Shown: one piece after another, positions 30,331 through 64,000 of the stretch
Layout: the number at the start of each line of letters is the position of its first letter
Position numbering within the stretch: the stretch's first letter is position 1
The notes under the pieces: model-generated
What the model was told of the DNA's origin: nothing
Database searches by the model: none
The model's input: only the letters and a program-made list of their open reading frames with translations
From: an uncultured Actinomycetes bacterium
GTDB taxonomy: Bacteria; Actinomycetota; Thermoleophilia; Gaiellales; JAICJC01
DNA: 64,000 bases
NCBI GenBank assembly: GCA_963809325.1
Contig: CAWEIZ010000002.1
Location: forward strand, 609,745-673,744
Reading direction: 5' to 3'
Made by a program: the position numbers and the translations under genes

Positions 30331-31575
30331 ATGTCGAGATGCGAGGTGAATGACGACGAGCCTGCCCGCACGTCCGGACTCGCGCGGATGCGCGTGCGGG
30401 GCTTCCGGACAGCCCTCGACGTAACACTGCGTCCGGGGCGCGTGTGTGCGCTCGTCGGAGAGGCCAACGCCGGGAAGTCCAACCTGCTTGCCGCCATGTG
30501 GATGCTGCTCGACCCGCTCGCTCCGGCGCCACAGAGGACGGACGTGGCCGTCGGAAGCCGTGGAGGCATCACGATCGAGGGCGACCTGACCTCGGGCGGC
30601 TCCGTGCGACTGGACGCCGCTCCGCCGAAGGTGGTGCGAAGCGCTCCTGCGTCCCGCCAGGATGTCCTCTTCATGCCGGCCGAGCTTCGCTCCGGGGCCG
30701 TCGTTGCGGCGACGGCCGCAGCCGGCGGCGGAGCCGGTCGAGCCCACGCCGCGATCGCGGGGACTCTGGAGCAGGCTCTCGGGCAGTTGTCGGGTCACGC
30801 CTCGTCGGCGACAGGGGCCGTCTCGCTGGTATCCGCGCTCGAGCTGCTCCGCGCCGAGACGGTCGCCGGGATCGTGGTGCTGATCGAGGAGCCGGAGCTC
30901 TTTCTTCGCCCGCAGGCCCAGCGCTACCTCTACCGCCTGCTGCGCGAGCTGGCGACGGCGGGGAATCAGGTGGTGTACTCCACCCACGCCCCGGCGTTCC
31001 TGAACGTTGGCCGCCTCGAGGAGCTGGTGTTTGTGCATCGCGATCCGGAGCACGGCGTCCGCGTCCACCAGCCCGGCCCGTTCCCCGCGGCCTCGGACTT
31101 CCGCACGCTCTCCGAGTTCGACGCCGAGCGGAGCGAGCTCTTCCTGGCGCGGGCAGTGCTGCTCGTCGAGGGGGTCACCGAGAAGCTTGCGTTCCCGTTC
31201 GTGTTCCGCGCGTTGGGCCACGACCCCGATCGCGAGGCGATCTCGATCGTCGAGTGCGGAGGGAAGGCGAACATCCCCCTGTTCGTCCAGATCTGCCGTG
31301 CGGCTGGTGTCCCGTGCGTTGCCGTTCATGACCGCGACGCTCCGCCGGGGCGGCGCCCGATCGCCGCCGAGCGGTTCATCAACCGGCAGATCGAGGAGGC
31401 CGCGACGGCGGACCGGACGGTGGTCATGGCTCCCGACTTCGAGTCGGTCGCCGGGCTTCGCGGCAGGCGGCACAAGCCGGAACGCGCCTGGCAGCGGTTC
31501 ACGGAGGCGGAGGAGCCCGTCCCCGAACCGCTCGCCCGGGCGGCGAGGCTCGTGCTCGCGCTCGCCCGCGATTGA
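30331..31575 (+). CDS. OLD-family ATP-dependent endonuclease (P-loop ATPase + TOPRIM)
   Basis: GFRTALDV...LVGEANAGKSNLL (Walker A), VVLIEEPELFLRPQAQR (Walker B/signature region), LVEGVTEKLAFPFV...VECGGKANIP...VHDRD (TOPRIM). An alternative start is ATG 30388. Confidence 0.75.
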   Translation: MSRCEVNDDEPARTSGLARMRVRGFRTALDVTLRPGRVCALVGEANAGKSNLLAAMWMLLDPLAPAPQRTDVAVGSRGGITIEGDLTSGGSVRLDAAPPKVVRSAPASRQDVLFMPAELRSGAVVAATAAAGGGAGRAHAAIAGTLEQALGQLSGHASSATGAVSLVSALELLRAETVAGIVVLIEEPELFLRPQAQRYLYRLLRELATAGNQVVYSTHAPAFLNVGRLEELVFVHRDPEHGVRVHQPGPFPAASDFRTLSEFDAERSELFLARAVLLVEGVTEKLAFPFVFRALGHDPDREAISIVECGGKANIPLFVQICRAAGVPCVAVHDRDAPPGRRPIAAERFINRQIEEAATADRTVVMAPDFESVAGLRGRRHKPERAWQRFTEAEEPVPEPLARAARLVLALARD

Positions 31576-31623
31576 TGCTGCGCTCATCACAACCGGGGGC
31601 GTTGCGGGAAACCCGATTCCCGC

Positions 31624-31641
31624 TTCGGTGCGCATACCGAT
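31624..31641. promoter_or_regulatory. stress-island dyad, site A: TTCGGTGCGCATACCGAT, 33 nt upstream of the eRF1-like gene
   Basis: One of five related dyads (see findings). Flanked by GCGGGAA / TTCCCGC / GCGGGAA repeats at 31604-31648. Confidence 0.5.
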
Positions 31642-31674
31642 GCGGGAAGTGCGGGCAGGCGCGAGAGTCGTGAT

Positions 31675-32730
31675 ATGAGCATTGATCGCAAAACCGTTCT
31701 GGCGGTGGCCCGCATGCGAGATCCGGCCGGAGTCGTGTCGATCTACGTCGACGTCGATCCGCTCGAGGCCGCATCGGGGGCCCCAACCTGGCTCGAGGAC
31801 TTCAATGTCGAGGTTCGCCGTCTGAACTGCCAGGAGCGGCTGCACGAGCTGAGTCGCGAGATCGCGGATGTGGTGGACCCGTCGCGGCACGGCCGCGGAC
31901 GGGCGCTCTTCTTCGGCGCGACGGCCGGCGGCGCCGTTCACTCGTTTGCCGTCCAGCTGCCGCTCGAGACCTCGGTGAGGCTGGCCGAGCGTCCGCACCT
32001 GCAGCCGCTGCTCGAGGCGCTCGACGGAGCTCGCCCGGCCGGCATCGTCATCGTCTCGATGGCGGAGCTCCGCGCGATCGAGCTGGCATGGGGAGAGGCC
32101 GCCGATCTGGTTCGGCGCGAGATGACTCCGCCGCCGTCGGAATGGAACGAGCGGAAGGAGCCCAACCACCTCCACGACGAGGACCGGCTCCATATCGTCC
32201 GCACCGCTGCGCCGGTCGTCGAGAAGCTCGCCCGCAACCGCGGGTGGGATCGAGTTGTCCTGGCAGGGAACCCGCGCCTCACCCGGCCGCTCGCCGCGAG
32301 GATCACGTCACACGTGGACGCGACGGTGGTCGAGGCGGTGAGGAACGTGCTGATCGAGGACGGCGCACCGCAGGTGGCGAGCCGTCTCCGCTCGCACGTC
32401 GCCACCGCCGGCGAGCGCCGGGCCGCGGCGCTGCTCGACCTGGCCCACGACGCGGCGCTTGCCGGTGGGCGGGGCGCGATCGGCGTCGACGACGTACTCG
32501 ACGCGGTCACCGAAGGCCGAGCCGCATGGGTCGCGATCGACGGTGAGGCGGCGCTCCACACGAGCGGGGTCCGGGAGCCGGCTGGAGGCGTCCGGCTGCT
32601 GCACCGCGCCGACGTGGCGGACACCATCATCGAGCGTGCGCTCGAGACGGACGCCACGCTGACCGTGCTCTCGGGGAGCACCCATCCCGCTCTGCGGGCA
32701 GCCGGTGCGGTGGCCGTCCTTCGGTGGTGA
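31675..32730 (+). CDS. eRF1-like (baeRF1 / Vms1-like) family protein, divergent
   Basis: N-terminal pattern AGVVSIYVDVDP...GRGRALFFGA...LAERPHLQPLLEAL is typical of the actinobacterial eRF1-like family. I did not find a GGxSQ-like motif. Confidence 0.5.
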   Translation: MSIDRKTVLAVARMRDPAGVVSIYVDVDPLEAASGAPTWLEDFNVEVRRLNCQERLHELSREIADVVDPSRHGRGRALFFGATAGGAVHSFAVQLPLETSVRLAERPHLQPLLEALDGARPAGIVIVSMAELRAIELAWGEAADLVRREMTPPPSEWNERKEPNHLHDEDRLHIVRTAAPVVEKLARNRGWDRVVLAGNPRLTRPLAARITSHVDATVVEAVRNVLIEDGAPQVASRLRSHVATAGERRAAALLDLAHDAALAGGRGAIGVDDVLDAVTEGRAAWVAIDGEAALHTSGVREPAGGVRLLHRADVADTIIERALETDATLTVLSGSTHPALRAAGAVAVLRW

Positions 32731-32787: not shown

Positions 32788-33546
32788 CTAGCGCACCACG
32801 AGCACGGAGCCGGCGGCCCTGTGGGCGACGGCCCCGCTGACGCTGCTGAGCGCCCGCAGCCCTCGCAGCCCGCGGCAGCCGACCACGAGAAGGTCGTCTG
32901 TCGTGGCCCGCTCGATCAGCGTCGCGGCCGGCGAGCTGTCGAGCGCATGCACCGCGTCGAGGGCCGCGCCGGTGCGCCGGCTGAGCTCGTGTGCGACTGC
33001 GAGCGCGCGCGTGGACGGCTCAGACTCGTCGACGCCGACGACGATCGTGCGAGGGAACGTCGCGATCGGCGCGGCGCGGGCGATCAGCACAGAGCAGGCC
33101 GCGTCGTGGACGAGCCGCGCCGCAACGCCGCCCAGGAGTGTCCCCGGGAGCCGACCCTGCCCGTGGCTGCCCACGGCGATCATGCCCGCCTCGAGGCGCG
33201 CAGCCTCGACTGCGAGGAGCGCCGCGGCGGGCCCGGTGCGGAGCGTCGTCGTCACCTCAATCCCGCTCGAGACGTCGTGGGCCGCCTCGGCGAGCGCCGC
33301 CCAGGCCTCTTTGCGGAGCCGGCGCTCCGGCTCGGCCATCTGCGCGGGCATGACCGACGCAACCGATTCGACGAGCCCGGCATGGATCACGCCGACGAGC
33401 TCGATTCGGGCGCCGGGCGCGGCGAGAAGCGCGGCCTGGCGGACGGCCTCAGCCGCCTCTGCGGAGCCGTCGACCCCGCAGACGATCGTCGAGAGGACAG
33501 CCGCCGCGTCAATCGTCGGTACCCGAATGGAATGAAGCTCGGCCAT
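32788..33546 (-). CDS. universal stress protein (tandem Usp domains)
   Basis: IVCGVDGSAEAAEAV...MIAVGSHGQGRLPGTLLGGVAARLVHDAACSVLIAR...IVVGVDESEPS...LLVVGCRGLRGLRALSSVSGAVAHRAAGSVLVV. Confidence 0.85.
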   Translation of the reverse strand: MAELHSIRVPTIDAAAVLSTIVCGVDGSAEAAEAVRQAALLAAPGARIELVGVIHAGLVESVASVMPAQMAEPERRLRKEAWAALAEAAHDVSSGIEVTTTLRTGPAAALLAVEAARLEAGMIAVGSHGQGRLPGTLLGGVAARLVHDAACSVLIARAAPIATFPRTIVVGVDESEPSTRALAVAHELSRRTGAALDAVHALDSSPAATLIERATTDDLLVVGCRGLRGLRALSSVSGAVAHRAAGSVLVVR

Positions 33547-33675: not shown

Positions 33676-35143
33676 TCAGCGTCCGAGCGGAACCAGAGGC
33701 CGCTCTTCCTTGAACATCCGCACCGGCGGCGTTGCAACCGGAGGCGGTGGCTCGACCGGCGCTTCCTTCGACTGGCGCCAGCGCATGAACACGTACACCG
33801 GGATGCCTGCCATCAGGAGCAGGAACCCCTGCGCGATGTACTCCTCACCCGCTCCGTAGATCATCCAGAACGAGTACGTGAAGGCCAGGATGGCGATCGT
33901 CGCGTCGAGCGTCAGGCGCCGTCCGCTGAACCGCTCGCGATCGGTGAACATCAGCATCAGCTGGGCGGCCGCCGAGAATGCGTACGGCACGAGCGTGGTG
34001 AGCGTGGCCAGGATGATGATCTTCGTGAACGTGTCGGTGAGCGAGGACTGGTAGTTCATCGCCATGAGCCCGCTCAGGAGCACCGACGACGCCACGAGGC
34101 CCACGACCGGCGTCTTGCGCGTGCCGCTGACCTGTGCGAACGCCTTCGGGAAGAGGCCGTCCTGCGCCGCGGCCAGTGGCACACGGCCCTGGATCAGGAT
34201 CCAGCCGTTGAGGGCGCCGAACGTCGAGATCATCGCCACTGCGGCGATGAGCTTGTCGGGCGAGACGCCCAGGACCGACGAGCCGAAGATCTGGCGGGCT
34301 GCGTCGGCGAACGGGGCGTTCGAGTCCGGCCAGCGTCGCGGCCGGGATGACGCCCATGATCGCCACGGTGGCGAGCACGTACAGGCCCGTCGTGACGGTC
34401 GTCCCGAGGATGGTCGCCCGCGGCAGCGTCTTCTCGGGGTTCTTGACCTCTTCAGCCGGAACGGTGGCCGACTCGAGACCAAGGAACGCCCACAGGGTCA
34501 GCGTGGCCGCGAACGAGATCGCGTGCCAGTGGCCCGAGAGGCTGACGTGGTTCGGGTCAAACGGCGTGAAGTTCGCGCTGTGCATGTAGAAGAGCCCGAT
34601 CAGGCCGATCAGAAGCAGCGGCACGAACTTGAGAACCGTTGTGACGACCTGGATGATGCCCGACTCGCGCGCGCCCGCGATGTTCGCGAGCGTCAGCACC
34701 CAGATGACCGAAAGCCCGAGTGTGAACGCGAGCACGTTGTCTGTCCCGAGGCTGGGCCAGAACACGCTGGCATAGCTCACGAAGATCGTCGCGATGGCGG
34801 CGTTGCCGGCCCATGCCGCGATCCAGTAGCCCCAGGCGGTCCAGAAGCCTGCGAAGTCGCCGAACGCCCGCCGCGCATAGGCGTACGGCCCACCGGTCTG
34901 CGGGTAGGCCCGGCCGAGATTCGCAAAGACGAGCGCGAGCAGGATCGCGCCGGCTCCCGTGAAGATCCATGCGAGCAGCGAGATCGGCCCCGTCGACGCC
35001 AGTGATGCCGGAAGCCCGAAGACTCCCGATCCGACCATGTTTCCGATCACCAGCGCGGTTGCCATCCAGAGTCCAAGCGAACGCTTGAGCTTCGGACGGC
35101 CCGCCCCGGCCAGGTCGGAGTGGGTATCCGAGACGCTTGACAT
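33676..35143 (-). pseudogene. amino acid permease (APC superfamily), +1 frameshift near 34326 as assembled
   Basis: The N-terminal 2/3 (LGLWMATALVIGNMVGSGVFGLPASLA...VIPAATLA) is in the frame of 35143. The C-terminal 1/3 (SNAPFADAARQIFG...ALNGWILIQGRVPLAAAQDGLFP...) is in the frame of 34482. Confidence 0.75.
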
Positions 35144-35363
35144 GGCGTTCCCCTTCCATGAGTTGGGCGGATGATTCCGGCCCCACTATCCGTCCGCTCA
35201 GTGCCGCCCGCATCGGGGCCGGCGCCGCACCCGTCGCAGGGGAAGTACCACACGATTTGCGGGCGAATACGCACCCTCAATCGGCGATGTCCCGGATGCC
35301 GAAACGGCGCCCTGGGCACGACGATGAGTGGCACATCTCGGGCACCGTCCCAAGGGGGTCACC

Positions 35364-35582
35364 ATGGGCACGTCCACGCTCTTTCCGTCGAAGCCGGCAT
35401 CTCGGGTGACGCCGGGCGACACGGCTTGGCCGTCCCCGACGGAGCTCGTGTGCGGCGAGTGCGGCTACGCGGTCACCGCGCGCCGTGAGATCCCGCACTG
35501 CCCGATGTGCGGTGCTCCGGGCGCCTGGAAGGCGCCGGCGACCCGCTACCGCAGCGCACCCTCGATCCGCCGCGCCAGGTAG
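35364..35582 (+). CDS. small zinc-ribbon (CxxC...CPxC) protein
   Basis: GGGGG RBS-like run before the ATG; ...ELVCGECGYAVTARREIPHCPMCGAPGAW...; the 3' end overlaps the convergent oxidoreductase gene. Confidence 0.4.
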   Translation: MGTSTLFPSKPASRVTPGDTAWPSPTELVCGECGYAVTARREIPHCPMCGAPGAWKAPATRYRSAPSIRRAR

Positions 35583-36661
35583 GGCGCGAGGAACGGCGCG
35601 GCGATCTTGTCGGGGGGCGACCAGAACGGCTGGGTTGTCGCGACCGACGAGAGCTCTTCACCGTCTCGGATGTGGCTCGAGAGGTAGCGCGGGCCGTTTC
35701 CGGTGAGGAGCACGCTTCGGATGACCGGCCGGAACGGCTCGGGCAGGATGGCTGCTCCCGCCTCGGCCGCGATGACCTGCGCCACGGCGTCGGCCTGCTG
35801 AGCGGCGATGCCGCCCTGCTTCACCGAGTAGTTGGTGATGTCCCCAGCGGCGAAGACGTTCGTCAGGCCCTCTACGCGGCCGTACTCGTCGACCGGGATG
35901 AACCCGCCCTGCACATGCGGGACGCCGTCGAGCTCGATGGCCTGCTGTGCGGGCAGCGCCACGAACCGGTCCGCCTCGACCGTGCCGGACGGCGCCAGCG
36001 TCAGCCTGCCGTCGTCCACGCCCATCGGAATGACGCCGGCGACCAGCGTGATGCCGTGCTCGCCGAGGAGCTCTGCCACCGCCCGGCTCGCCGCCGGGCC
36101 GAGCACGCCGAGCGGCTCGTCCTCGGGCGTGACGAGCGTCAGCTCCGCCTCGTGCTTCGCCGGCCGCCGGGCGGTCATGAGAGCCAGCTCGTACATCGGA
36201 AGCGGCCACACCGTTCCGTGGGGGACGATGAACACGACCGACGCGACCTCGCCGGCATCGATCTCGTCGAGAATTCGCCGGTAGGTTTCGACGTCCGCCA
36301 GCCCCGCGAAGGTCGAGGCCCCGGGGACCGCGGAGACGAGCTTCGTCCCGCACGCGATGACGAGTGCGTCGTACTCGGCGCTCGTTCCGTCGTCGAAGAT
36401 CGCCCGGCGGCCGGCGTTGTCGACCCCGGCGAGCCCGTTGATCCGCAGCGTCGCCCCGACGTCGGCCGTGATCTCCCGGAGGTCGAGCATGTGGACGTGG
36501 CCACGCCCGAAGGGCTCCGAGACGACAAGCGGCCGGTACGCGAACGCCGGCTCAGGGGACGCCAGCTCGACCGAGACCAGGTCGGGCGCGAGTGCGCGTA
36601 GCGCGAGCGCCGTCTCGATGCCTGCGACGCCTCCGCCCGCGATGAGAACGCGGAACTGCAT
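35546..36661 (-). CDS. FAD-dependent pyridine nucleotide-disulfide oxidoreductase (SQR/NDH-2-like), paralog 1
   Basis: MQFRVLIAGGGVAGIETALAL...YDALVIACG...VFAAGDITNYSVKQGGIAAQQAD; paralogous to 59819-60943. Confidence 0.8.
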   Translation of the reverse strand: MQFRVLIAGGGVAGIETALALRALAPDLVSVELASPEPAFAYRPLVVSEPFGRGHVHMLDLREITADVGATLRINGLAGVDNAGRRAIFDDGTSAEYDALVIACGTKLVSAVPGASTFAGLADVETYRRILDEIDAGEVASVVFIVPHGTVWPLPMYELALMTARRPAKHEAELTLVTPEDEPLGVLGPAASRAVAELLGEHGITLVAGVIPMGVDDGRLTLAPSGTVEADRFVALPAQQAIELDGVPHVQGGFIPVDEYGRVEGLTNVFAAGDITNYSVKQGGIAAQQADAVAQVIAAEAGAAILPEPFRPVIRSVLLTGNGPRYLSSHIRDGEELSSVATTQPFWSPPDKIAAPFLAPYLARRIEGALR

Positions 36662-36750
36662 GCGCCGAAGGATCCGCTTTCGGCCGTCCGAATGCATCCG
36701 TGCAGACCCCGGGTTCCATTTCGGGAAAGCCGCAAACGGCCGTCGCCGGA

Positions 36751-36768
36751 TTCGGTGCCGGCACCGAT
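36751..36768. promoter_or_regulatory. stress-island dyad, site B: TTCGGTGCCGGCACCGAT, between the divergent oxidoreductase and hsp20 genes
   Basis: The inner 14 nt, CGGTGCCGGCACCG, is a perfect palindrome; followed by GCGGGAAG as in site A. Confidence 0.5.
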
Positions 36769-36818
36769 GCGGGAAGGGCGTCTGCGGTCAGAATTCAAGC
36801 TGGAGAGGAGGTGACGCC

Positions 36819-37247
36819 ATGACGACCATGACGACATGGGATCCCTTCCGGCAGATGGAGCGGTTCGAGCAGGAGCTGGGGAAGTTCTTCGCCCGCCCGA
36901 ACACTCCGACCGGGACATGGATGCCCGCAGTCGACGTCGAGCAGACTCCGACGGAGCTCGTCTTCACGTTCGACCTTCCGGGCATCTCGCCTGACGATGT
37001 CAGCATCGAGCTGCACGATCGCACGCTGACGGTCTCGGGCTCGCGCGAGGAGAAGCGCGACGAGACGCACGAGGGCTATCACACGCACGAGCGCGTGTTC
37101 GGCCAGTTCGGTCGCAGCTTCTCGCTGCCGTATGCTGTCAAGCCGGACGAGATCAAGGCTGAGTTCGCCAAGGGCGAGCTGGGCATTCACGTGCCACGTC
37201 CAGCCGAGGCGCAGCCTCAGCGGATCGAGATCGCCGCGAAGGAGTAG
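36819..37247 (+). CDS. Hsp20/alpha-crystallin family small heat-shock protein
   Basis: GGAGAGGAGG RBS; WDPFRQMERFEQEL...WMPAVDVEQTPTELVFTFDLPGISPDDVSIELHDRTLTVSGSREE...FGRSFSLP...AEFAKGELGIHVPR. Confidence 0.9.
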   Translation: MTTMTTWDPFRQMERFEQELGKFFARPNTPTGTWMPAVDVEQTPTELVFTFDLPGISPDDVSIELHDRTLTVSGSREEKRDETHEGYHTHERVFGQFGRSFSLPYAVKPDEIKAEFAKGELGIHVPRPAEAQPQRIEIAAKE

Positions 37248-37315: not shown

Positions 37316-37942
37316 CTACTGGAGCAGGCGAGGCGCCGTCAGGATCTCGGTCATCCGAGTCGCCTGGGGGAAGTGCTCGGGCGACTCCGCGATCTCGCGG
37401 AGCTGTGACGCCGCCCCCGGCCCTGTGAACACGAAGATGACCTCGGTGTCGCCGAGGAACACCTCGGGGTGCTCGAAGCTCTCGCCGGGAAGGCCCAGCG
37501 GGTGATCGTGTGCGAGCGCGCGCTCGAGATCGGCGCGCTTTCCAGGACGGATCTCCGCGAGGATCGCGACCCGGTCGTTGATGACCGGTCCCTGGGCGCC
37601 GTCCAGCGGGCGGACGTCCTCGCGTACCGAGGCAATGGCGTTCTGCAGCTGGTGCGCGGCTCCCCAGCCGCCGAGCAGGAGCTCGACGACGACTTCGCCG
37701 TCGGGGCCGCCGACCGCCACCGCGGGGGACGGACGCCACCGGTTCAGCCCGACGCCGGTGATCTGGTCCGCAGGCATCCGCAGCGTCCGCCGCAGGCCTC
37801 CGGGCGGCGTGCCCTCGAGCACGAAGTCGTGGCCGTCGACGCGCGCACGCCCGAGGTGGCGCCTGTGGTTCTCGTCCGTCCACGCGACCGCGTACTCCAC
37901 GACGGCCGTGTGACCCAGCGGCTTCATTGAATGTTCGGCCAT
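37316..37942 (-). CDS. hypothetical protein; the C-terminal half is related to the 56984-57289 protein
   Basis: The start MAEHSMKPLG is preferred over 38011 because site E lies upstream of it. The C-terminal pattern VAILAEIRPGKRADLERAL...FEHPEVFLGDTEVIFVFTG resembles ILYVAQIDPARREELLETF...LERHTVFIGPRHVAFLFEG. Confidence 0.55.
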   Translation of the reverse strand: MAEHSMKPLGHTAVVEYAVAWTDENHRRHLGRARVDGHDFVLEGTPPGGLRRTLRMPADQITGVGLNRWRPSPAVAVGGPDGEVVVELLLGGWGAAHQLQNAIASVREDVRPLDGAQGPVINDRVAILAEIRPGKRADLERALAHDHPLGLPGESFEHPEVFLGDTEVIFVFTGPGAASQLREIAESPEHFPQATRMTEILTAPRLLQ

Positions 37943-37998
37943 GCTCAGAGGATCGTCCGCTGCGCGCGAAAGTGCGTCGGGGTCGACACGGAATCGGC

Positions 37999-39238: not shown

Positions 39239-39270
39239 CTGTTGCAGCCGACCCCGTGGTTCGCCGGGTG

Positions 39271-56514: not shown

Positions 56515-56538
56515 CCAACCCCGAGAGGAGACGACCCG

Positions 56539-56733
56539 ATGGACACCCAGCTCATCATCGACCCGGACACGTGCGTCGGATACGGGGAGTGCGTCGCCGA
56601 GGACGCGTCCGCCGTCGAGCTCGACGAGAACGGCTGCGCGCGGGCTCTCGTGCCGCTGCTTGCCCGCGACCGGGCGGAGCGGCTCTGCTCCGCGTGCCCG
56701 GTCGGCGCCATCACGCTCAGGTCTGCGGCCTAG
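56539..56733 (+). CDS. small ferredoxin
   Basis: MDTQLIIDPDTCVGYGECVAEDASAVELDENGCA...CSACPVGAITL. Confidence 0.8.
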   Translation: MDTQLIIDPDTCVGYGECVAEDASAVELDENGCARALVPLLARDRAERLCSACPVGAITLRSAA

Positions 56734-56739
56734 AGTAGA

Positions 56740-56999
56740 GATGAGTGACCGATAACTCCCGCGCGCGTGGACGCCCGCCGCTTCGGAACGGCGAACCGGG
56801 GAGAGGCTGTGGCTGCGAACCGTCGCATCGCGGCGTCCTCGGTCGCCCCGATATTTCAATCAATATCGCCCGCCGGCGTCTGCGTCATCGCAGACGCCTT
56901 CCGAACCCTGTCAAGCCGTGCCGGCTTGACAGGTCCTGCGTCCTTGCGCTACTCGGTTCTCGCCACCCAGAACATCACGGGAGTTATCGATCACTCATC
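56740..56999 (-). ncRNA. candidate structured RNA, copy 1 (260 nt; 22-bp closing stem, conserved core, two extra hairpin insertions)
   Basis: Closing stem 56740-56761 / 56978-56999. Its only mismatch is C.A on the plus strand, which is G.U on the minus strand. Core blocks are near-identical to 63590-63794. No conserved ORF. Confidence 0.4.
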
Positions 57000-57289
57000 C
57001 CCCGCCGCCAATCGAACACGGCGGTGAGCGCCTCGGGCGCCTTGACCGCGCCGGCCAGCTCGATCACCTGGAGCTGCAGGTCGTGGTCGTCCGCCAGGCG
57101 GCGCACGACGGCATCCGGATCCAGGCCCTCGAACAGGAAGGCGACGTGCCTGGGGCCGATGAACACCGTGTGCCGCTCGAGCTCGGTCGCCGCGATGTCG
57201 TAGGGCGGCTCCCCGGAGAACGTCTCGAGGAGCTCCTCGCGGCGGGCGGGGTCGATCTGGGCGACGTAGAGGATCTCTGTTCCGGCCAT
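56984..57289 (-). CDS. hypothetical small protein, last gene of the USP-ATPase unit
   Basis: MAGTEILYVAQIDPARREELLETFSGEPPYD...HTVFIGPRHVAFLFEG...; the stop codon lies inside the closing stem of the element above. Confidence 0.6.
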   Translation of the reverse strand: MAGTEILYVAQIDPARREELLETFSGEPPYDIAATELERHTVFIGPRHVAFLFEGLDPDAVVRRLADDHDLQLQVIELAGAVKAPEALTAVFDWRRGMSDR

Positions 57290-57333
57290 CCGTGGTCGAG
57301 GATAGCGCGACGGGGCCGTCGTGCGGAAGGTGG

Positions 57334-59193
57334 TCACGAGCGACCGCCACCCAGGGCCCGGAGCGCGTTCAGGATCACGGCGACGTCGATGACCTCCTGG
57401 AACACCGCGCCCGACACCGGCGGCAGGTATCCGGCGGCGGCGAACGCCATGCCCACGATGCTGAGCCCCAGGCCGGCGATGACGCTCTGGCGGGCGATCC
57501 GGATCGATCGCCGGCCGATGCTCACCGCGCGGGCGACGCGATCGATGCGGTCGACCGCGATCACCGCGTCCGCGGCCTCCGACGCGATGGTGGCGCCGGC
57601 CGCGCCGAGCGCGATGCCGACGTCGGCGAGCGCCAGGGCCGGCGCGTCGTTGATCCCGTCGCCGACCATCACGATCGGGCTCAGGTCATCGCGAGCGGCG
57701 AGCGAGCGGACGAGCTCCAGCTTGTCCTGAGGCGACTGCCTGGCGTAGATCCGGTCGACGCCCGCCGCGCGGCCGATGGCCTCTGCCGTGGTCTCGACGT
57801 CTCCCGTGGCGAGGGCCACGTACCGGACACCCGATCTGCGCAGGTCGGCCACGAGCCCCCCGGCATCCTCGCGCAACCGGTCCGACATCACGATCACGGC
57901 GACGACGCGACCGTCGGCCGCCACGGTGACGCGCGCCTCGCCGTCCGCGGCCGCGCCCTCGTCGGCCAGAGCCTCGGGCTGGGCCGCGTGCGCCGCCACG
58001 AACGCTGCGCTTCCGACAGCGACCGGCCGTCCGTCGACGTCGCCCGCGATGCCCTGTCCCGCGTCCTCCCGCACACCGCTCGGCATGCTGAGCCGGAGTC
58101 CGCGATCCGACGCCTCCCGCACGAGCGCTGCGGCCATGGCGTGCGAGGAGAACTGGTCGAGCGACGCCGCAATCCGCAGCGCCTCGCTCGCAGGGATGCC
58201 GTCCGCGGTCAGGATCCGGTCGACCTGAGCCGTTCCCAGCGTCAGCGTCCCGGTCTTGTCGAAGAGCACGGTGCGCGCGCGGCCCAGCGCCTCGATGACG
58301 GCACCGCCCTTCACGATCACGCCCTCCCGCGCCGCCCGGGACACGCCCGAGATGAACGCGATCGGCGCGGCCAGGATGAGCGGGCACGGCGTCGCAACCA
58401 CCAGCACCGCGACGGCCCGTCGTGGGCTCCCGCTGACCGCCCACGCCGAGCCGGCCACCACGATCGTCACCGGCAGGAACACGGCTGCGTAGCGGTCGGC
58501 CATCCGGACGAAGGGCGCCTGACTGCCTTCGGCGTCGCGCACGAGCCGCACCAGGGCGGCGTACGTGCTGCCCGACGCCGGCGTCGTGGCCTCGAGCTCG
58601 AAGGCCTCGCCGGCATTCGTGCAGCCGCCGCGCGCCGTCGCACCGGTGTGCAGCGTGCGCGGCAACGGCTCGCCGGTCAGCGCCGAGTCGTCGACGATGG
58701 CCTCGGCGCTCTGGACGATGCCGTCTGTGGGGATCACCTCGCCGGCCCGGACGAGCAGACGGTCTCCGACCCGCACCTCGTCGACCCCGATCCGCTCGAC
58801 AGCATCGCCCGTGATCCGGTTCGCCCACTTGGGCGCTCGGTCGACCAGGAGCGTCAGCTCCCGGCGGGCCCGCCCCTGCGCGAAGAGCTCGAGTGCGTTC
58901 CCCCCGGCGAGCATCAGCGCGATCACGGCCCCCGCCAGGTACTCGCCGATCGCCAGCGCGCCCGCCATGGCCAGGAGCGCGATCGCATCCACGCCGACGT
59001 CACCGTGAAGCAGCGACCTCCCGACCGAGATCGAAAGCGGGATCAAGAGGGCGAGCGTCGACGCCGCCCAGATGGTGCTCGCGGCGGCGTGCGCTCCCGC
59101 GAGATCGAGCACCCCTCCTGCAACCAGGCTGACGGTGGCCGCGCCCGGCAGGAGGAGGCGTGTCTCCATGGCCGTGCGCGGCAGACCGGGCAT
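57334..59193 (-). CDS. heavy-metal-type (P1B) P-type ATPase, with no N-terminal metal-binding domain and TM motif PCP
   Basis: DKTGTLT, VMVGDGINDAPALA, ATPCPLILAAP, TGEPLP. The start is 59193 or 59169. Confidence 0.85.
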   Translation of the reverse strand: MPGLPRTAMETRLLLPGAATVSLVAGGVLDLAGAHAAASTIWAASTLALLIPLSISVGRSLLHGDVGVDAIALLAMAGALAIGEYLAGAVIALMLAGGNALELFAQGRARRELTLLVDRAPKWANRITGDAVERIGVDEVRVGDRLLVRAGEVIPTDGIVQSAEAIVDDSALTGEPLPRTLHTGATARGGCTNAGEAFELEATTPASGSTYAALVRLVRDAEGSQAPFVRMADRYAAVFLPVTIVVAGSAWAVSGSPRRAVAVLVVATPCPLILAAPIAFISGVSRAAREGVIVKGGAVIEALGRARTVLFDKTGTLTLGTAQVDRILTADGIPASEALRIAASLDQFSSHAMAAALVREASDRGLRLSMPSGVREDAGQGIAGDVDGRPVAVGSAAFVAAHAAQPEALADEGAAADGEARVTVAADGRVVAVIVMSDRLREDAGGLVADLRRSGVRYVALATGDVETTAEAIGRAAGVDRIYARQSPQDKLELVRSLAARDDLSPIVMVGDGINDAPALALADVGIALGAAGATIASEAADAVIAVDRIDRVARAVSIGRRSIRIARQSVIAGLGLSIVGMAFAAAGYLPPVSGAVFQEVIDVAVILNALRALGGGRS

Positions 59194-59205
59194 CGGGCGT
59201 TGCGG

Positions 59206-59643
59206 TCAGGCTTCGATCGCCGACGACTCTGCGGCCTCGACCCCGTGTCCCGTGTAGCCACCGGGGACGACGAGCACCGGGCACGTGGCGATCGGCAGCA
59301 GGCGCTGCGTTGTGCTTCCCAGCACTGCGCCGGCGAACGGCCCGCGGCCGCGGCTGGCGATCACGATCAGCTCGGCCTCGGCTTCCCGAGCGACTTCGGC
59401 GATCATCTGCGCCTCGTCGCCGAACAGCGAGTCGCGGACGATGATGGAGGTCTCGATGCCGGACCGGGAGAGGTGCTCAACGTGAGCGTGGAGCGTGTCC
59501 TCGATCGCGGTTTCGAGCGCGTGCGTGCGGGCGTGCGCAACCACGATCCGGGCGCCTTCCCGGCGCGCGTACGCCTCGGCGACGGGGATCGCCCGATTGG
59601 AGCCTTCCGATCCATCGAGTGCGAGAACGATTGTGGTGTACAT
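59206..59643 (-). CDS. universal stress protein
   Basis: MYTTIVLALDGSEGS...LIVIASRGRGPFAGAVLGSTTQRLLPIATCPVLVV. Confidence 0.9.
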   Translation of the reverse strand: MYTTIVLALDGSEGSNRAIPVAEAYARREGARIVVAHARTHALETAIEDTLHAHVEHLSRSGIETSIIVRDSLFGDEAQMIAEVAREAEAELIVIASRGRGPFAGAVLGSTTQRLLPIATCPVLVVPGGYTGHGVEAAESSAIEA

Positions 59644-59696
59644 GGCAACACCTCCGTGTCGTTCTCACCATGGTTGCGTGTGGACCTCCGGGCGGC

Positions 59697-59714
59697 ATCG
59701 GGGCGGGTACCGAA
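59697..59714. promoter_or_regulatory. stress-island dyad, site C (minus-strand reading TTCGGTACCCGCCCCGAT), between the divergent USP and oxidoreductase genes
   Basis: Same spacing as sites A and B; followed by GCCGC. Confidence 0.45.
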
Positions 59715-59818
59715 CTCGTGTGCGGGGTTCCCGTATGGCAGGTCATGGCGGCCACCGATGGCCGTCCGGCCGGTCGGCGCTAGCCTTGAGCCGTCAGAGA
59801 GTCCAGCGGAGGTGCGTG

Positions 59819-60943
59819 ATGAGCGGCCTGCGGCGGCTTCGCGTCGTGATTGCCGGAGGAGGGGTGGCGGCGCTTGAGACGGCGCTCGCCCTGCGCACGC
59901 TGGCGCCCGAGCTGACGGAGATCACGCTCGTCGCGCCGACCGACCGGTTCAGGTTCCGGGCAGCGGCGGTCGGCGAGCCGTTCGGCCGCGCCGAGGTGCA
60001 CCGGTTCGACCTGGGGTCGATCGCGCGCGACATCGGCGTCACGCTGCGGCATGGTGCGCTCACGGCCGTCGATGCCGAGAACAGAACGGCGACCCTGGGC
60101 GGCGACGAGAGGATCGAGTACGACGCCGTCGTCATCGCGTGCGGGGCCCAGGCGAGCCCGGTGGTGCCCGGAGCGCTCGTCTTCGGCGGCCCGGAGGACG
60201 TCGAGGGTCTGCGCAGGCTCGTCGCCGAGATCGACGCCGGCGAGGTCCACGCGGTGGCGTTCGCGATCCCGGCGAGCATCGGCTGGACGCTGCCCGCATA
60301 CGAGCTCGCGCTCCTGACGGCGCACCGGGCCGACCCCCGGGTGTCGATCTCGATCGTGACCCCTGAGGAGGAACCGCTGGCCGCCTTCGGCGGCGAGGCC
60401 AGCGCGGAGGTGCGCCGGCTGCTCGAGGCGAACGGCGTTGCGCTCCACCTGCGCCAGACACCGGCCGAGTTCACGGCCGGCGTCCTGCGCACGCAGCCCG
60501 GCGACGAGATCCAGGTCGAGCGCGTGGTCGCCCTGCCGCGGCTCGTGGGCGTCCCGATCGAGGGCGTCCCCGCCACGCGAGATGGGCTGCTGCGCACCGA
60601 CGAATTCGGACGCGTCGACAACCTGACCGACGTCTACGCCGCGGGCGACATCACCGCGTTTCCGGTCAAGCAGGGTGGCATCGCCGCCGAGCAGGCCGAC
60701 GCCGTCGCCGAGATGCTGGCATCAGAGGCGGGGATCGACATCACGCCCACACCGTTTCAGCCCGTCCTGCGGGGCGTGCTCATGACGGGCGAGGAGGACC
60801 GCTTCCTGCGCGCCGACCTGGGGGGCGGGCGCGGGGACACGGCCGAGGCGGAGGCACGGGCGCTGTGGTGGCCGCCGGCGAAGGTCTCGGGCCGCTACCT
60901 GGCGCCGTATCTGGCCGGCATCGAGGCCGCTACCACGACTTGA
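59819..60943 (+). CDS. FAD-dependent pyridine nucleotide-disulfide oxidoreductase (SQR/NDH-2-like), paralog 2
   Basis: GCGGAGG RBS; LRVVIAGGGVAALETALAL...YDAVVIACG...VYAAGDITAFPVKQGGIAAEQAD. Confidence 0.8.
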   Translation: MSGLRRLRVVIAGGGVAALETALALRTLAPELTEITLVAPTDRFRFRAAAVGEPFGRAEVHRFDLGSIARDIGVTLRHGALTAVDAENRTATLGGDERIEYDAVVIACGAQASPVVPGALVFGGPEDVEGLRRLVAEIDAGEVHAVAFAIPASIGWTLPAYELALLTAHRADPRVSISIVTPEEEPLAAFGGEASAEVRRLLEANGVALHLRQTPAEFTAGVLRTQPGDEIQVERVVALPRLVGVPIEGVPATRDGLLRTDEFGRVDNLTDVYAAGDITAFPVKQGGIAAEQADAVAEMLASEAGIDITPTPFQPVLRGVLMTGEEDRFLRADLGGGRGDTAEAEARALWWPPAKVSGRYLAPYLAGIEAATTT

Positions 60944-63572
60944 GCCGTTCCTGGGGCACGGCGTGCGCCACCCGGACGCGTGCGTCCACGGCGACGCAGT
61001 CGTCCGCGAGCGCGATCACGGGGTTCAGGTCGAGCTCGGCCACGTGTGGGAAGTCCTCCGCGAGCGCGGCGAGCCGGACGACGAGGTCGACGAGCGCGCC
61101 CGTGTCGGCCGGCGGGCGACCGCGGAAGCCGCCCACCAGCTCGCCCGCCTTCCCCGACGTGACGAGCTCGCCGGCGTCGATGTCGGTGAGCGGGAGCGTT
61201 GCGAACGCCGTGCCCCCGATCAGCTCGGCCATCGTCCCGCCGGGGCCGAAGGCCACCACGGGGCCGAACACCGGGTCCTGCACGACGCCGGCCAGGAGCT
61301 CGATCCCGCCCGAGACCATCGGCTGGAGCACGGCCGGATACCCGATCCGGTCGAGGGCGGCGTCGAGCGCGGCCAGGTCGCGGACTCCGAGGATCACGCC
61401 GCCGCTGTCGATCTTGTGGACGCCCGCCTCGCCGAGCTTCACGACGAGCGGGTAGCCCAGCGCATGTGCGGCCTCGAGCGCCTCGGGCCGGTTCGTCACC
61501 GTGCGCTGGGCGACGCACGGCACGCCGTAGGCGGTGAGGAGGCGGCGGGCGGCGTCGGCGCCAAGCCAGGCGTCGGGTGAGGCCTCGAGCGCTGATTCGA
61601 TCACCGCGTGGGCCGCGGCCCGGTCGACGACGGGCTCGTGGACGCGCCCCTGCGGCCGGCGCAGCCACTCGGCCCGCTCGGCGGCCCGCGCGAGCGCGCC
61701 GGCGGCGGCCTCCGGGTAGCGGTAGCACGGCACCGATCCGCTGTGAGTCGCGCTGCCGGGGGTGACCGCCAGCACGGGCTTCCGCGGTTGCTCGCGGTCG
61801 CACGCAGCGGCGATGGCGCGAACGACGTCCTCGGGCATTGCGAGCGCCGTGGGCGCCGCGAGCACGACGAGCGAGTCGACGTCGGCGTCGGCGAGGAGCA
61901 GCGGCACGACGGCCGCGTAGGTCTCGGCCGTCGCCGAGGCGATCATGTCGACCGGGTTGGTGACGGTCGCCTCGTCCGGCAGGAGCGCGGCGAGGTGCTC
62001 GCGCGTGTGCTCGTTGAGCGGCGCAAGCTCGAAGCCGAGCTCGGCGCAGGCGTCGGCGCACAGGATCGCCAGCCCGCCTGCGTTCGACAGGATCGCGACC
62101 CGCCTGCCGTGGGGCAGCGGCTGGGTCGCGACAAGCTGGAGGACGTCGCACAGCTCCTGCAGGGTGTGCGCGCGGATCACGCCGGCCTGTTCGAACAGCG
62201 CCTCCACCGCCCGGTCGGAACCGGCCAGCGCGGCAGTGTGTGACATCGCGGCCCGCTCGCCCATCGTCGTCGACCCGCTCTTCAGCGCCAGGACCGGCTT
62301 CTGCCTGGCGACCCGGTTGGCGATGCGCGCGAAGCGGCGGGGGTTCCCGACCGACTCCAGGTAGAGCGCGATCGCGGCAGTGTTGTCGTCGTCCTCCCAG
62401 TACTCGAGCAGGTCGTTGGACGACACGTCCGCCTTGTTGCCGATCGATACGAACGCGGACATGCCGAGGCCGCGCTGGGAGGCCTCGTCGATCACCGCGA
62501 GGCCGACGGCGCCGCTCTGCGACGAGATGGCCACGTTCCCCGGCTCGAACTGGCGGCGCGAGAACGTCGCGTTCATCTTCGTCGCCGCGGCGAAGACGCC
62601 CAGGCAGTTCGGCCCGACCATGCGCGCACCGTGCGAGCGGACGAGTGACAGCAGGTCGGCCTCGGCCTTCGCGCCGGCCGGCCCGGTCTCGGCGAACCCC
62701 GCCGAGATCACGCACACCGCCTTCGTGCCGGCGGCGAGCGCCTCGGCGACCGCTCCCTGGACGGCGCCCGACGGCACCGCGATGACCGCCAGGTCGATGG
62801 GCACCGGCAGCTCCGCGACCGAGGCGTGCGCGGGGTGCCCGGCAACGGGCTCGCCGGAGCGGTTGACCGGGAAGACCGATCCGGTGTAGCCGGCCTCGAC
62901 GATGTTCCGGAAGACGGCGCCTCCGATCGACCCCTCGCGCGCGGACGCGCCGACCACGGCGACCGAGTCCGGCTCGAGCACGGGCCGCAGCGACGGCCCG
63001 ACCGCGGTGTGGTCGCGAAAGTCCACTGCCTCGAAGTAGCGCTCGTCGAACCGGATCGGGAAGTCGACCCGGATCTCCTCGCCGTCGTCGCTGCGGGTGA
63101 CCTCGAACCCCGAGTCCTCGAAGACCCGCAGCATCGCCCGGTTCTCGGGCAGCACCTCGGCGACGAAGCGCTCGATCCCGATCTTGCCCGCCTCGTCCGC
63201 GATCTGCTCGAGCAGCCGGGTGGCGATCCCGTCGGCCTGGCGGTCGTCGGCCACGACGAACGAGACCTCCGCCAGCCGCGGGTCGCGGAGGCGGACGAAG
63301 CTCGCCAGGCCGATCACCCGGGCGCTCTCGTCGGCGCCGACGGCGGTGGCGAGGAGCACGCCCTCGCTCGTCCAGTCCGGGTCGAGGAAGCTCGCGACCA
63401 TCGCGTCGTCGACGCGCCTGGCGGCGTGGAACCGCAGACGCATGCTCGTCGGCGAGAGCTCCGTCAGGAACCGCCGCACGGCGTCGGCGTCGTCGTCGGA
63501 AGGCGGGCGCAGGCGGAGCGTGCGCCCGCCTCGCAGGATGACGTCGTGAACGCGTTGCCCGGTGGCGCTCAT
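60930..63572 (-). CDS. bifunctional GNAT acetyltransferase / ADP-forming acyl-CoA synthetase-like protein (Pat-like, GNAT N-terminal)
   Basis: N-terminal GNAT domain (VADDRQADGIATRLLEQIADEAGKIGIERFVAEVLPENRAMLRVFEDSGF). It is followed by CoA-binding/succinyl-CoA-ligase-like and ATP-grasp regions (VAVVGAS...GPNCLG...SQSGA...VVKL...). GGAAGG RBS. Confidence 0.85.
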   Translation of the reverse strand: MSATGQRVHDVILRGGRTLRLRPPSDDDADAVRRFLTELSPTSMRLRFHAARRVDDAMVASFLDPDWTSEGVLLATAVGADESARVIGLASFVRLRDPRLAEVSFVVADDRQADGIATRLLEQIADEAGKIGIERFVAEVLPENRAMLRVFEDSGFEVTRSDDGEEIRVDFPIRFDERYFEAVDFRDHTAVGPSLRPVLEPDSVAVVGASAREGSIGGAVFRNIVEAGYTGSVFPVNRSGEPVAGHPAHASVAELPVPIDLAVIAVPSGAVQGAVAEALAAGTKAVCVISAGFAETGPAGAKAEADLLSLVRSHGARMVGPNCLGVFAAATKMNATFSRRQFEPGNVAISSQSGAVGLAVIDEASQRGLGMSAFVSIGNKADVSSNDLLEYWEDDDNTAAIALYLESVGNPRRFARIANRVARQKPVLALKSGSTTMGERAAMSHTAALAGSDRAVEALFEQAGVIRAHTLQELCDVLQLVATQPLPHGRRVAILSNAGGLAILCADACAELGFELAPLNEHTREHLAALLPDEATVTNPVDMIASATAETYAAVVPLLLADADVDSLVVLAAPTALAMPEDVVRAIAAACDREQPRKPVLAVTPGSATHSGSVPCYRYPEAAAGALARAAERAEWLRRPQGRVHEPVVDRAAAHAVIESALEASPDAWLGADAARRLLTAYGVPCVAQRTVTNRPEALEAAHALGYPLVVKLGEAGVHKIDSGGVILGVRDLAALDAALDRIGYPAVLQPMVSGGIELLAGVVQDPVFGPVVAFGPGGTMAELIGGTAFATLPLTDIDAGELVTSGKAGELVGGFRGRPPADTGALVDLVVRLAALAEDFPHVAELDLNPVIALADDCVAVDARVRVAHAVPQERLKSW

Positions 63573-63589
63573 CAAGACCTTCCGTAATC

Positions 63590-63794
63590 TAGATGGTTGA
63601 TTCCCAATTCGCGCGCGCCTGGACGTCCGATTTGTGGCGTGGACCGCCAAGCGTGGCGGGGCTGCGGCTGCGAACCGTCGCATCGCGGCGTCCTCGGTCG
63701 CGCCGATATTCACCAATATCGGCGCTCCCTGCGTCCTTGCGCTGCTCGGTTCTCGCCGCCCAGGACATCACGTGAATTGGGAATCAACCATCTA
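63590..63794 (-). ncRNA. candidate structured RNA, copy 2 (205 nt; perfect 21-bp closing stem), between the USP stop codon and the Pat-like gene RBS
   Basis: Closing stem 63590-63610 / 63774-63794. Core blocks match copy 1. On the minus strand its 5' end is the USP stop UAG and its 3' end lies 17 nt before ATG 63572. Confidence 0.4.
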
Positions 63795-64000
63795 GGCCGG
63801 ACCCGGCCGAATCACCAGGACCGAGCATCCTGCGCGGTGTGCGGCGCGCTCGCTCACGCTCCCGAGCGCATGGACCCCTCTCAACCCGCGGCTCCCGAGC
63901 ACGAGGAGATCCGCGTCCACATCCGAGAACGCGTCGACGGGATCGCGCGTGTCGTCGGTCAGGAGGAAGCCGCCCGAGTCGATGACGATCGACCGCACCG
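63792..64000 (-). CDS. universal stress protein, C-terminal part (5' end outside window)
   Basis: ...DADLLVLGSRGLRGVHALGSVSERAAHRAGCSVLVIRP*. Confidence 0.75.
   Translation of the reverse strand, partial: VRSIVIDSGGFLLTDDTRDPVDAFSDVDADLLVLGSRGLRGVHALGSVSERAAHRAGCSVLVIRPGPA

Follow-up and report, generated by a model that had tools for sequence, protein, structure and literature searches.

The stretch analysed here, 64,000 nucleotides of contig CAWEIZ010000002.1 (the window), carries two modules of stress genes with ~12 kb of catabolic and ATP-binding cassette (ABC) transporter genes between them. A preliminary description of the window had read its last ~32 kb as one unbroken stress island resembling the DosR dormancy regulon of Mycobacterium tuberculosis. 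The island is not unbroken, as sugar/peptide ABC-transporter genes, dehydrogenase genes and a GntR regulator occupy 38071-50338. The genes of the two modules are linked in related species, two palindromic motifs recur upstream of them at fixed spacing, and in a conspecific contig a predicted heme-type sensor kinase with its response regulator is encoded just past the window end. We consider it moderately probable that this region, together with the mechanism proposed below, represents most of a low-oxygen or dormancy-type stress regulon of an uncultured Gaiellales soil bacterium.

The window has a G+C content of 71%. Genes were called from third-position GC bias and checked against the gene calls of near-identical public contigs, and their identities were assigned by Pfam, NCBIfam and PDB searches. 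The same region is found in four independent metagenome assemblies at ~99.4-99.6% identity, and the nearest homologs and related loci belong to soil metagenome-assembled genomes (MAGs) of uncultured Gaiellales and Thermoleophilia. The source itself looks like a long-read MAG carrying occasional single-base indels.

Stress genes of the two modules

The genes of the modules and of the operon adjoining the second one are, with their strands:

31675-32730, plus: putative Balon-family (bacterial aeRF1-like) ribosome hibernation factor, Pfam baeRF_family10 (PF18854)
32788-33546, minus: tandem-domain universal stress protein (USP), Pfam Usp E 5e-32 in three stretches
33676-35143, minus: basic amino acid/polyamine antiporter (arginine/agmatine- or arginine/ornithine-like)
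35364-35582, plus: 72-aa CxxC...CxxC zinc-ribbon or rubredoxin-like open reading frame (ORF), gene-called in L006 and in a JGI contig
35546-36661, minus: Oxr1, a flavin adenine dinucleotide (FAD) flavoprotein (Pyr_redox_2) distantly like sulfide:quinone oxidoreductase (SQR)
36819-37247, plus: Hsp20/alpha-crystallin small heat-shock protein, Pfam HSP20 E 2e-20
37316-37927, minus: 203-aa hypothetical protein
50968-53111, plus: OmpR-type two-component system (response regulator and HAMP histidine kinase)
53922-56733, plus: ApbE flavin transferase, 192-aa membrane protein, ferredoxin reductase and Fer4_15 ferredoxin
56539-56733, plus: the small Fer4_15 ferredoxin of that set
56984-57289, minus: 101-aa hypothetical protein
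57334-59193, minus: P1B (heavy-metal) P-type ATPase, TIGR01525 482 bits, above cut-off
59206-59643, minus: single-domain USP, Pfam Usp E 4e-24, 13 nt upstream of the ATPase gene
59819-60943, plus: Oxr2, a paralog of Oxr1
60930-63575, minus: fusion of a GNAT domain with an ADP-forming acyl-CoA ligase (GNAT-ligase)
63792-64000, minus: 3' end of a 273-aa tandem USP (USP273) that runs off the window

A six-frame phmmer sweep found three USP genes in the window and not the four of the preliminary description, which had counted the ATPase-linked gene (59206-59643) twice. The Hsp20 gene was recovered as described, in a single copy. The product of 31675-32730 had been called eRF1-like, and its match to PF18854 (51 bits against a cut-off of 27.1, E 2.5e-13) bears this out and refines it, since by sequence the protein is predicted to be a Balon-family ribosome hibernation factor. 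It shares the bacterial aeRF1-like (baeRF) family with Balon, Rv2629 and MSMEG_1130 but falls below the NCBIfam equivalog cut-offs, both for the MSMEG_1130-family ribosome hibernation factor (E 5e-38, 131 bits against 480) and for the Rv2629 family, where the match is weak (E 1e-4). Balon genes have been reported beside Hsp20, alternative sigma factors and hypoxia genes (PMC10901736). In sister species the Balon-family gene and the OLD nuclease gene next to it are missing from the corresponding position, which suggests that the former was recruited to the island in this lineage. Hsp20 is missing from its position in L010-L012, and the metagenome contigs that do carry this Hsp20 are too short to give its gene context. 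These absences indicate that island membership changes over time.

Two paralogous FAD oxidoreductases are each encoded divergently from a stress gene, as previously described. Oxr1 and Oxr2 are only 48% identical as proteins and are therefore not assembly duplicates, an origin that had been raised for the paralog pairs. Their match to an SQR structure is distant (3hyv, E 3e-11); Oxr1 contains just one Cys and lacks a second GxGxxG motif, and an invariant Cys occurs in none of the alignment columns of 11 homologs. The catalytic Cys pair of an SQR is thus missing, and the sulfide:quinone oxidoreductase label that source databases give to this family of more than 7,000 proteins, mostly fused to CBS domains, is probably wrong.

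The ATPase gene stands co-oriented behind a USP gene with a 13 nt gap, as had been noted, but the likeness to CtpF does not hold. The protein is of the heavy-metal P1B type, without an N-terminal metal-binding domain and with the membrane motif ATPCP, and its best PDB matches are CopA, ZntA and CoaT. A CtpF-like P2 Ca-ATPase was rejected, as P2 models score 69-100 bits, far under their cut-offs.

The gene earlier called Pat-like does encode a GNAT domain fused to an NDP-forming acyl-CoA synthetase, but it differs from the cAMP-type Pat of mycobacteria, which acetylates a USP. Its domains follow the order Acetyltransf_3/1 (residues 20-158), CoA_binding_2, Succ_CoA_lig, Ligase_CoA_2 and ATP-grasp_5. 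The GNAT domain resembles that of mycobacterial Pat (NF058543, E 8e-17), and the synthetase part is nearer to the ADP-forming CoA ligase 8wzu (E 1e-117) than to the protein acetyltransferase 9it0 (E 6e-80). In the alignment, MSHTAALAG pairs with MSHTGALMG of 8wzu, a 4-hydroxybutyrate-CoA ligase, and with SSHTGSLAG of 2csu, and we take the histidine of this SHT(G/A) motif to be the catalytic histidine of ADP-forming CoA ligases. The domain order is the one described for type II GNAT acetyltransferases (PMC8556138), as in PatA of Streptomyces lividans. Type I and type II Pat enzymes are, however, described as lacking the SHT(G/A) histidine (PMC8556138), whereas the GNAT-ligase retains it. A synthetase-like domain that is inactive for want of this histidine was accordingly rejected, and since the histidine is kept, the GNAT-ligase may still make ATP from acyl-CoA. 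The position of a USP gene immediately upstream is as first reported, and at related loci a USP gene lies within two genes of 12 of the 19 Pat genes.

Two small hypothetical proteins had been described as related, and the C-terminal half of the 203-aa protein (37316-37660) does match the 101-aa protein (pairwise E 3e-7), with a profile search uniting both architectures. The family has ~290 cluster representatives among 1.84 billion proteins, in which the ~100-aa domain either stands alone or forms the C-terminal half of ~200-225-aa proteins, and it recurs beside SQR-like flavoproteins. No Pfam family was found among 48 members, two of which carry a CBS fusion. An AlphaFold model of the 101-aa protein, built from a shallow alignment, has a pLDDT (predicted local distance difference test) of 61. 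Foldseek returned nothing for this model at E <= 0.001, and its weak matches were consistently to dimeric alpha+beta-barrel proteins (ABM, TcmI, LsrG), so that the modelled fold is tentatively ferredoxin-like alpha+beta of the dimeric alpha+beta-barrel type.

Conspecific contigs have an intact antiporter gene of 488 aa, whereas in the window an extra nucleotide at 34324 shifts its frame, owing either to an error of the long-read assembly or to a pseudogene at strain level. The zinc-ribbon ORF is kept in relatives and matches RUBY_RBDX weakly (E 0.004). Before the second module, an operon on the plus strand (50968-56733) runs from the OmpR-type response regulator and HAMP kinase through two small ORFs (122 and 129 aa; 53112-53921) to ApbE, the membrane protein, ferredoxin reductase and ferredoxin. 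The two small ORFs are called in conspecific contigs and match no Pfam family, and the 192-aa membrane protein is weakly MsrQ-like. The module of ApbE, MsrQ-like protein, ferredoxin reductase and ferredoxin recurs beside such islands in several relatives. The small ferredoxin that had been counted among the island genes is therefore present, but as the last gene of this separate operon and of another class than FdxA.

Two palindromic motifs and a linked sensor kinase

A dyad shared by the two divergent promoters had been proposed from the letters of the window, and it is real: the perfect palindrome TCGGTGCCGGCACCGA lies at 36752-36767 and a 3-mismatch copy at 59698-59713. Seven copies with up to three mismatches were found, against a shuffle mean of 1.9 and above every shuffle. 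We modelled the motif, m1, as a symmetrised position weight matrix (PWM) of a 20-bp palindrome, about CATCGGnGCCGGCnCCGATG. Scans covered the window and its extension by L090, a conspecific contig that is 99.6% identical to 49207-64000 over 14.8 kb and runs past base 64000, and gave at least seven m1 promoter sites. Exact enumeration of 5-mer palindromes recovered ATCGG-N8-CCGAT and led to a second motif, m2, a 15-bp palindrome TGCGG-N5-CCGCA with an A/T-rich N5. This motif was found at loci where the recognition helix of the regulator differs slightly, and its PWM was built from those other species only. Its top hits in the extended window are in four island promoters, at 36717, 65691 (between USP156 and the kinase gene), 31600 and 59718. 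The predicted sites are:

31600-31642: bipartite operator of the Balon-family gene, m2 core 31603-31617 (TGCGGGAAACCCGAT) and m1 31623-31642 (CTTCGGTGCGCATACCGATG), centres 22.5 bp apart
35211-35230: m1 (CATCGGGGCCGGCGCCGCAC) between the permease gene and the zinc-ribbon ORF, orthologous sites in L010-L014
36717-36769: bipartite operator of Oxr1/Hsp20, m2 core 36720-36734 (TTCGGGAAAGCCGCA) and m1 36750-36769 (containing the perfect palindrome), centres 32.5 bp apart
37975-37994: weaker m1 upstream of the 203-aa gene
50871-50890: m1 (GATCAGGCCCGGCCCCGATG) ahead of the operon that starts with the OmpR-type response regulator; L030 and L064 have orthologous sites
59696-59760: symmetric m1-m2-m1 operator of USP/Oxr2, m1 59696-59715, m2 core 59721-59735 (TGCGGGGTTCCCGTA) and m1' 59741-59760, centres 22.5 bp apart on each side
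L090 extension: two m1 sites 43 bp apart upstream of arginine deiminase
L090 extension: weak m1 between USP156 and the kinase gene, centre 22.5 bp from that of m2

Of the 28 m1 hits scoring 14 bits or more in 11 loci of close relatives, 26 fall between genes, although intergenic DNA makes up 16.7% of the sequence (p 2e-18). The sites stand at orthologous promoters. An orthologous m1-m2 pair is found at Oxr1/Hsp20 in L013 and L014, and in a five-species alignment of the USP/Oxr2 region the boxes appear, like a footprint, as conserved blocks amid diverged sequence. The second motif occurs across Thermoleophilia. Outside the loci that supplied its seed sites, 53 of its 64 hits are intergenic (p 4e-28), and most of them immediately precede an Oxr gene or lie in the gap that separates USP156 from the GAF kinase. 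Measured from centre to centre, m1 and m2 are 22.5 bp apart in 15 of the close clade's 21 pairs and 32.5 or 33.5 bp apart in three more, and in distant loci m1-like hits near m2 are found at 22.5 or 21.5 bp only. The intergenic position of m2 in non-seed loci and this quantised spacing suggest that the operator is bipartite and conserved across the class.

Clear m1 and/or m2 sites precede all USP, Hsp20 and Balon genes except the USP273/USP107 pair. The start codons follow the predicted operators at ~45-90 bp, and scans of the two divergent intergenic regions gave neither sigma-70 consensus promoters nor terminators; such positions and the lack of a sigma-70 consensus would fit activator-dependent promoters. 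The shared motif had been said to differ from that of DosR, and neither m1 nor m2 resembles the DevR or OsdR box; m1 has in common with the OsdR and Dev boxes the geometry GG-N8-CC. The Dev box we take to be TTSGGGACTWWAGTCCCSAA. The OsdR box, AGGGCCGATCGGCCCT, resembles the DevR box (PMC5069765). A literature search found no paper giving a FixJ-box consensus.

The preliminary description saw no NarL-type DosR homolog, and the six-frame sweep found neither a GAF kinase nor a GerE-type regulator in the whole window. None was visible because the window ends before the regulator. In L090 the gene for USP273 is completed and is followed by those for USP107 and USP156, by a divergent kinase and regulator, and then by an arginine deiminase operon, to which relatives add ornithine carbamoyltransferase and carbamate kinase. 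The kinase (L090:2201-4024, ~1.6 kb past the window end) has the domains GAF, GAF, HisKA_3 and HATPase_c, as do its orthologs in L025 and L030. Its first GAF domain (GAF-A) matches the heme domains of DosT (2vzw, E 2e-42) and DevS (E 4e-37), and the stretches HPPMRTFLGVPV and FGNLYLTEK, conserved between GAF-A and DosT/DevS, presumably hold the proximal His and the distal Tyr. By homology, then, the protein is predicted to be a DosS/DosT-type heme-GAF histidine kinase.

Directly after the kinase is a 209-aa regulator with Response_reg and GerE domains. Over its full length VraR, NarL and DesR score above DevR, and its DNA-binding domain matches FixJ best (1x3u, E 2e-10), with DevR at E 2e-5. 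In an ungapped alignment a Glu pairs with DevR K182, which is described as the core DNA-binding lysine of DevR (PMC5999986). Orthology to DevR was rejected because of this Glu and the better matches to VraR, NarL, DesR and FixJ.

Comparison with relatives showed that the island is syntenic. The modules are linked in species that are 76-79% identical in Oxr: L011/L030 and L012/L051 each lie on one contig with the modules 20-30 kb apart, and in the JGI contig, known from its gene calls and not as DNA, they are ~3.5 kb apart and lack the block of ABC-transporter and OmpR-type two-component genes. Locus L084 has this gene set too, contiguous but in another order: arginine deiminase, permease, GNAT-ligase, two USPs, ATPase, Oxr, response regulator, kinase and USP. 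Within 10 kb of 80 Oxr homologs from Thermoleophilia there are at least 36 NarL-type response regulators, 32 GAF kinases, 35 USPs, 23 GNAT-ligases and 17 P-type ATPases, numbers that are lower bounds since detection was by single-sequence phmmer. Across these 80 loci, consistent linkage to the genes was seen for no regulator other than the pair of GAF kinase and response regulator.

Neighbouring genes and a dispersed structured repeat

Outside the stress genes the region contains the following features:

29189-30250: group-2-like sigma factor, a conserved neighbour of module 1
30265-31575: OLD-family nuclease (AAA and TOPRIM), a defence-type gene at a strain-variable spot and not a stress gene
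38071-50338: Gfo/Idh/MocA dehydrogenases, peptide-type ABC transporter, short-chain dehydrogenase/reductase (SDR), 2-hydroxyacid dehydrogenase, two DUF4438 proteins and GntR
50450-50845: cupin
56731-57002, minus: repeat copy 1, with a 60-nt insertion, overlapping the stop codon of the 101-aa gene
63585-63803, minus: repeat copy 2, between the USP and GNAT-ligase genes

The OLD nuclease gene sits between the sigma factor and the Balon-family gene, and one conspecific strain (L007:16311-18614) has an extra Lon-like gene (LonC_helical/AAA_32) beside it, so that module 1 is flanked by a small defence-like islet which varies between strains. Within the catabolic cluster, the DUF4438 paralogs stand in tandem (46884-48619) together with the SDR, the 2-hydroxyacid dehydrogenase, the peptide-type ABC transporter and the GntR/FCD regulator. 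The palindrome enumeration also returned GGGGAACC-N3-GGTTCCCC, which was rejected as an operator because it sits just past gene 3' ends, for example at 39069-39087 and at position 68309 of the L090-extended window, and in relatives too. These look like terminator-like hairpins without a T-tract.

Two copies of a structured element had been counted as part of the island. Both are present, 83-88% identical in their shared parts, but they belong to a dispersed repeat and give no evidence of co-regulation. The repeat is ~215 nt long and was found in at least 120 metagenome contigs by a core-pattern scan (L093-L212), and nhmmer recovered at least 122 copies, 96 of them near full length. An island-specific element was rejected because the 207 genes flanking the repeats fall into 152 clusters, in both orientations. 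The repeat often abuts a gene end, and its own ends, usually cTA|GATGRTTGA...TCAAYCATC|TAg, often overlap stop codons. At related loci copies follow Oxr2 in L051 (11072-11288) and L064 (10781-11001) and occupy the gap between USP and GNAT-ligase in L025 (13745-13960), while in L030 and L051 there is no repeat in that gap, which is 14-17 nt long.

An alignment of 80 copies has 53 consensus pairs with compensatory changes in 31, and covariation is seen in a predicted closing stem of ~18 pairs and in an internal hairpin. One closing-stem pair, for instance, is AU in 31 copies, CG in 17, UA in 15 and GC in 7, and a hairpin pair is AU in 35, CG in 31 and GC in 13. Some G.U wobble pairs are conserved (UG in 67 and in 72 of the 80 copies) and would turn into A.C mismatches on the opposite strand, which indicates that the sense strand of the repeat is the minus strand of the window. 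Rfam returned nothing at the repeat, either for the whole window at the gathering threshold or for 56600-63900 at E up to 5. The repeat is either MITE-like (miniature inverted-repeat transposable element) or a new RNA class, and a more tentative reading is that it could be a new class of mobile structured RNA and not an ordinary MITE.

A proposed low-oxygen regulon and its alternatives

From the conserved cis-elements and the synteny we infer that the genes of the two modules are co-regulated. Gene identities, linkage, motif conservation and fixed phasing are what was observed, and the model that we build on them concerns the protein that would bind the motifs, the signal it would answer and whether it would activate or repress. 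The heme-GAF kinase and its regulator are proposed as the source of the binding protein because they are the only consistently linked regulator and both motifs occur in their own upstream region. The kinase would sense O2, nitric oxide (NO) or CO, be activated by low O2, NO or CO, and phosphorylate the adjacent NarL/FixJ-type response regulator, which, probably as cooperating dimers, would bind m2 and m1 two or three helical turns apart and turn on the target genes. The proposed targets would provide protection (five USPs and Hsp20), ribosome hibernation (the Balon-type factor), redox and metal functions (the two SQR-like flavoproteins and the operon of USP, P1B ATPase and small protein) and O2-independent ATP, through the basic-amino-acid antiporter and the arginine deiminase pathway, which makes ATP from arginine. 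The GNAT-ligase would probably be a target as well, contributing ATP from acyl-CoA and/or protein acetylation, and the second two-component system with its ApbE/ferredoxin module would be a further one.

Several observations weigh against this model. The kinase and regulator are known from a conspecific contig and lie outside the window itself, and the regulator is by sequence no closer to DevR than to VraR, NarL or FixJ, nor are the motifs like the DevR or OsdR box. The m1 PWM is not enriched in 66 more distant loci, which limits the modelled m1 to the close clade. One m1 site ends ~10 nt before the called start codon of arginine deiminase; if that start is correctly called, the site would serve repression. 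In this genome, no motif belongs to the GNAT-ligase, the ferredoxin or the 12-kb catabolic block themselves. The intergenic statistics, moreover, count orthologous sites of related genomes, whose hits are not independent. Finally, a single regulator would not usually recognise two different palindromes whose half-sites are spaced differently.

This last point leads to the main rival explanation, in which the genes are still co-regulated but regulators other than the heme-kinase system, or acting beside it, recognise the motifs, for instance one factor m2 and a different one m1, and the heme kinase controls only part of the genes. The half-sites are spaced as CGG-N8-CCG in m1 and CGG-N5-CCG in m2, and a second transcription factor may therefore be involved. 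Candidates would be the OmpR-type system, a regulator encoded elsewhere, or the neighbouring group-2-like sigma factor, which is conserved beside module 1. It is consistent with two regulators that m1 is clade-restricted while m2 is widespread, and that m1 occurs alone at the promoters of the permease, the 203-aa protein, the OmpR-type response regulator and arginine deiminase. However, the phasing of 22.5 or 32.5 bp points to one cooperative complex, m1 and m2 are found together between USP156 and the kinase gene as autoregulation predicts, and no other regulator is consistently linked across the 80 Oxr loci. We regard divided control as rather unlikely, and control by the heme kinase and its regulator as the better account.

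The two remaining explanations fare much worse. USP and Hsp20 genes are common in actinobacteria, and bare TCGG-N8-CCGA also occurs within coding sequence of such 71% GC DNA, so that common stress genes might have clustered by chance and the dyads might be GC-rich chance palindromes or structural repeats that play no part in regulation; this is highly improbable given that the linkage is conserved over species and differing gene orders, that the motifs are strongly intergenic at orthologous positions with exact spacing, and that copies of the perfect palindrome are more numerous than in every shuffle. An assembly artefact or a recently acquired mobile island, as the indel-bearing long-read-like source and the variable OLD and Lon-like islet might suggest, can be dismissed almost entirely, because the paralogs and the repeat copies (a 60-nt indel apart) have diverged, the arrangement is the same in four independent assemblies, base composition is uniform over the whole region, and both paralogs are present and linked in other species.

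The resemblance to the DosR regulon holds and is stronger than was visible in the window, since a predicted heme-GAF kinase, a NarL-type regulator and two more USPs lie beyond it. As in DosRST of M. tuberculosis, a tandem-GAF heme-type HisKA_3 kinase adjoins a NarL-family regulator and USP genes, and the candidate targets include several USPs, an alpha-crystallin Hsp20, an aeRF1-like factor (Rv2629 there), a P-type ATPase and a Pyr_redox_2 flavoprotein, for which the DosR-regulon counterpart is presumably Rv1812c. Palindromic sites of ~20 bp near the promoter, in tandem and ~two helical turns apart as in M. tuberculosis, are also shared, as predicted sites here. The suggestion that the regulon is analogous but differently wired holds too. 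The motif sequences differ, the regulator has a FixJ-like recognition helix and DNA-binding domain with Glu at the position of DevR K182, the ATPase is P1B whereas CtpF is of P2 type, and another operon encodes the ferredoxin, a Fer4_15 protein with a single cluster. Genes for nitroreductase, triacylglycerol synthase or nitrate metabolism were not seen at the locus, which instead adds arginine deiminase fermentation, a basic-amino-acid antiporter, the GNAT/ADP-forming CoA ligase and a new small-protein family.

Two other systems are similar in part. OsdKR of Streptomyces coelicolor (SCO0167-SCO0219) is a DosR-like two-component system in a USP-rich island, with a palindromic operator derived by comparative genomics (PMC5069765), but its box is DevR-like, which m1 and m2 are not, and its island has nitrate reductase, nitroreductase and pyruvate phosphate dikinase. 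Rhizobial FixLJ likewise couples a heme-based O2 sensor kinase to a FixJ/NarL-family regulator and shares the RTVExHRA helix (1x3u), but FixL is a heme-PAS and not a GAF protein, and the FixLJ targets are fixK and nifA. The evidence in part supports placing the locus as a DosRST-like hypoxia or dormancy island with differing cis-elements and regulator DNA-contact residues.

Work on DosR-type control of dormancy has been confined almost wholly to mycobacteria and Streptomyces, and the literature searched contained no paper linking Thermoleophilia or Gaiellales to such systems. A wider and more tentative possibility, which we would not yet favour, is that Thermoleophilia carry a lineage-wide dormancy circuit of their own, with a heme kinase, a regulator with a FixJ-like helix and a bipartite operator, and a core that differs from the mycobacterial one and comprises the cysteine-less flavoproteins (often fused to CBS domains), USPs, the GNAT-ligase with its possibly active ligase part, and the ~100-aa family. 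The locus brings to light three uncharacterised companions of the stress genes, namely the cysteine-less SQR-like family, the ~100-aa family without a Pfam model and the GNAT-ligase fusion, and as a by-product an abundant structured RNA repeat without an Rfam family. For the Gaiellales and Thermoleophilia, soil actinobacteria that are abundant and for the most part uncultured, the locus yields a testable regulon model, consisting of a sensor, a regulator, two cis-elements of fixed geometry and a target set that would join ribosome hibernation, chaperones, USPs and arginine fermentation with acyl-CoA-linked ATP synthesis or protein acetylation.

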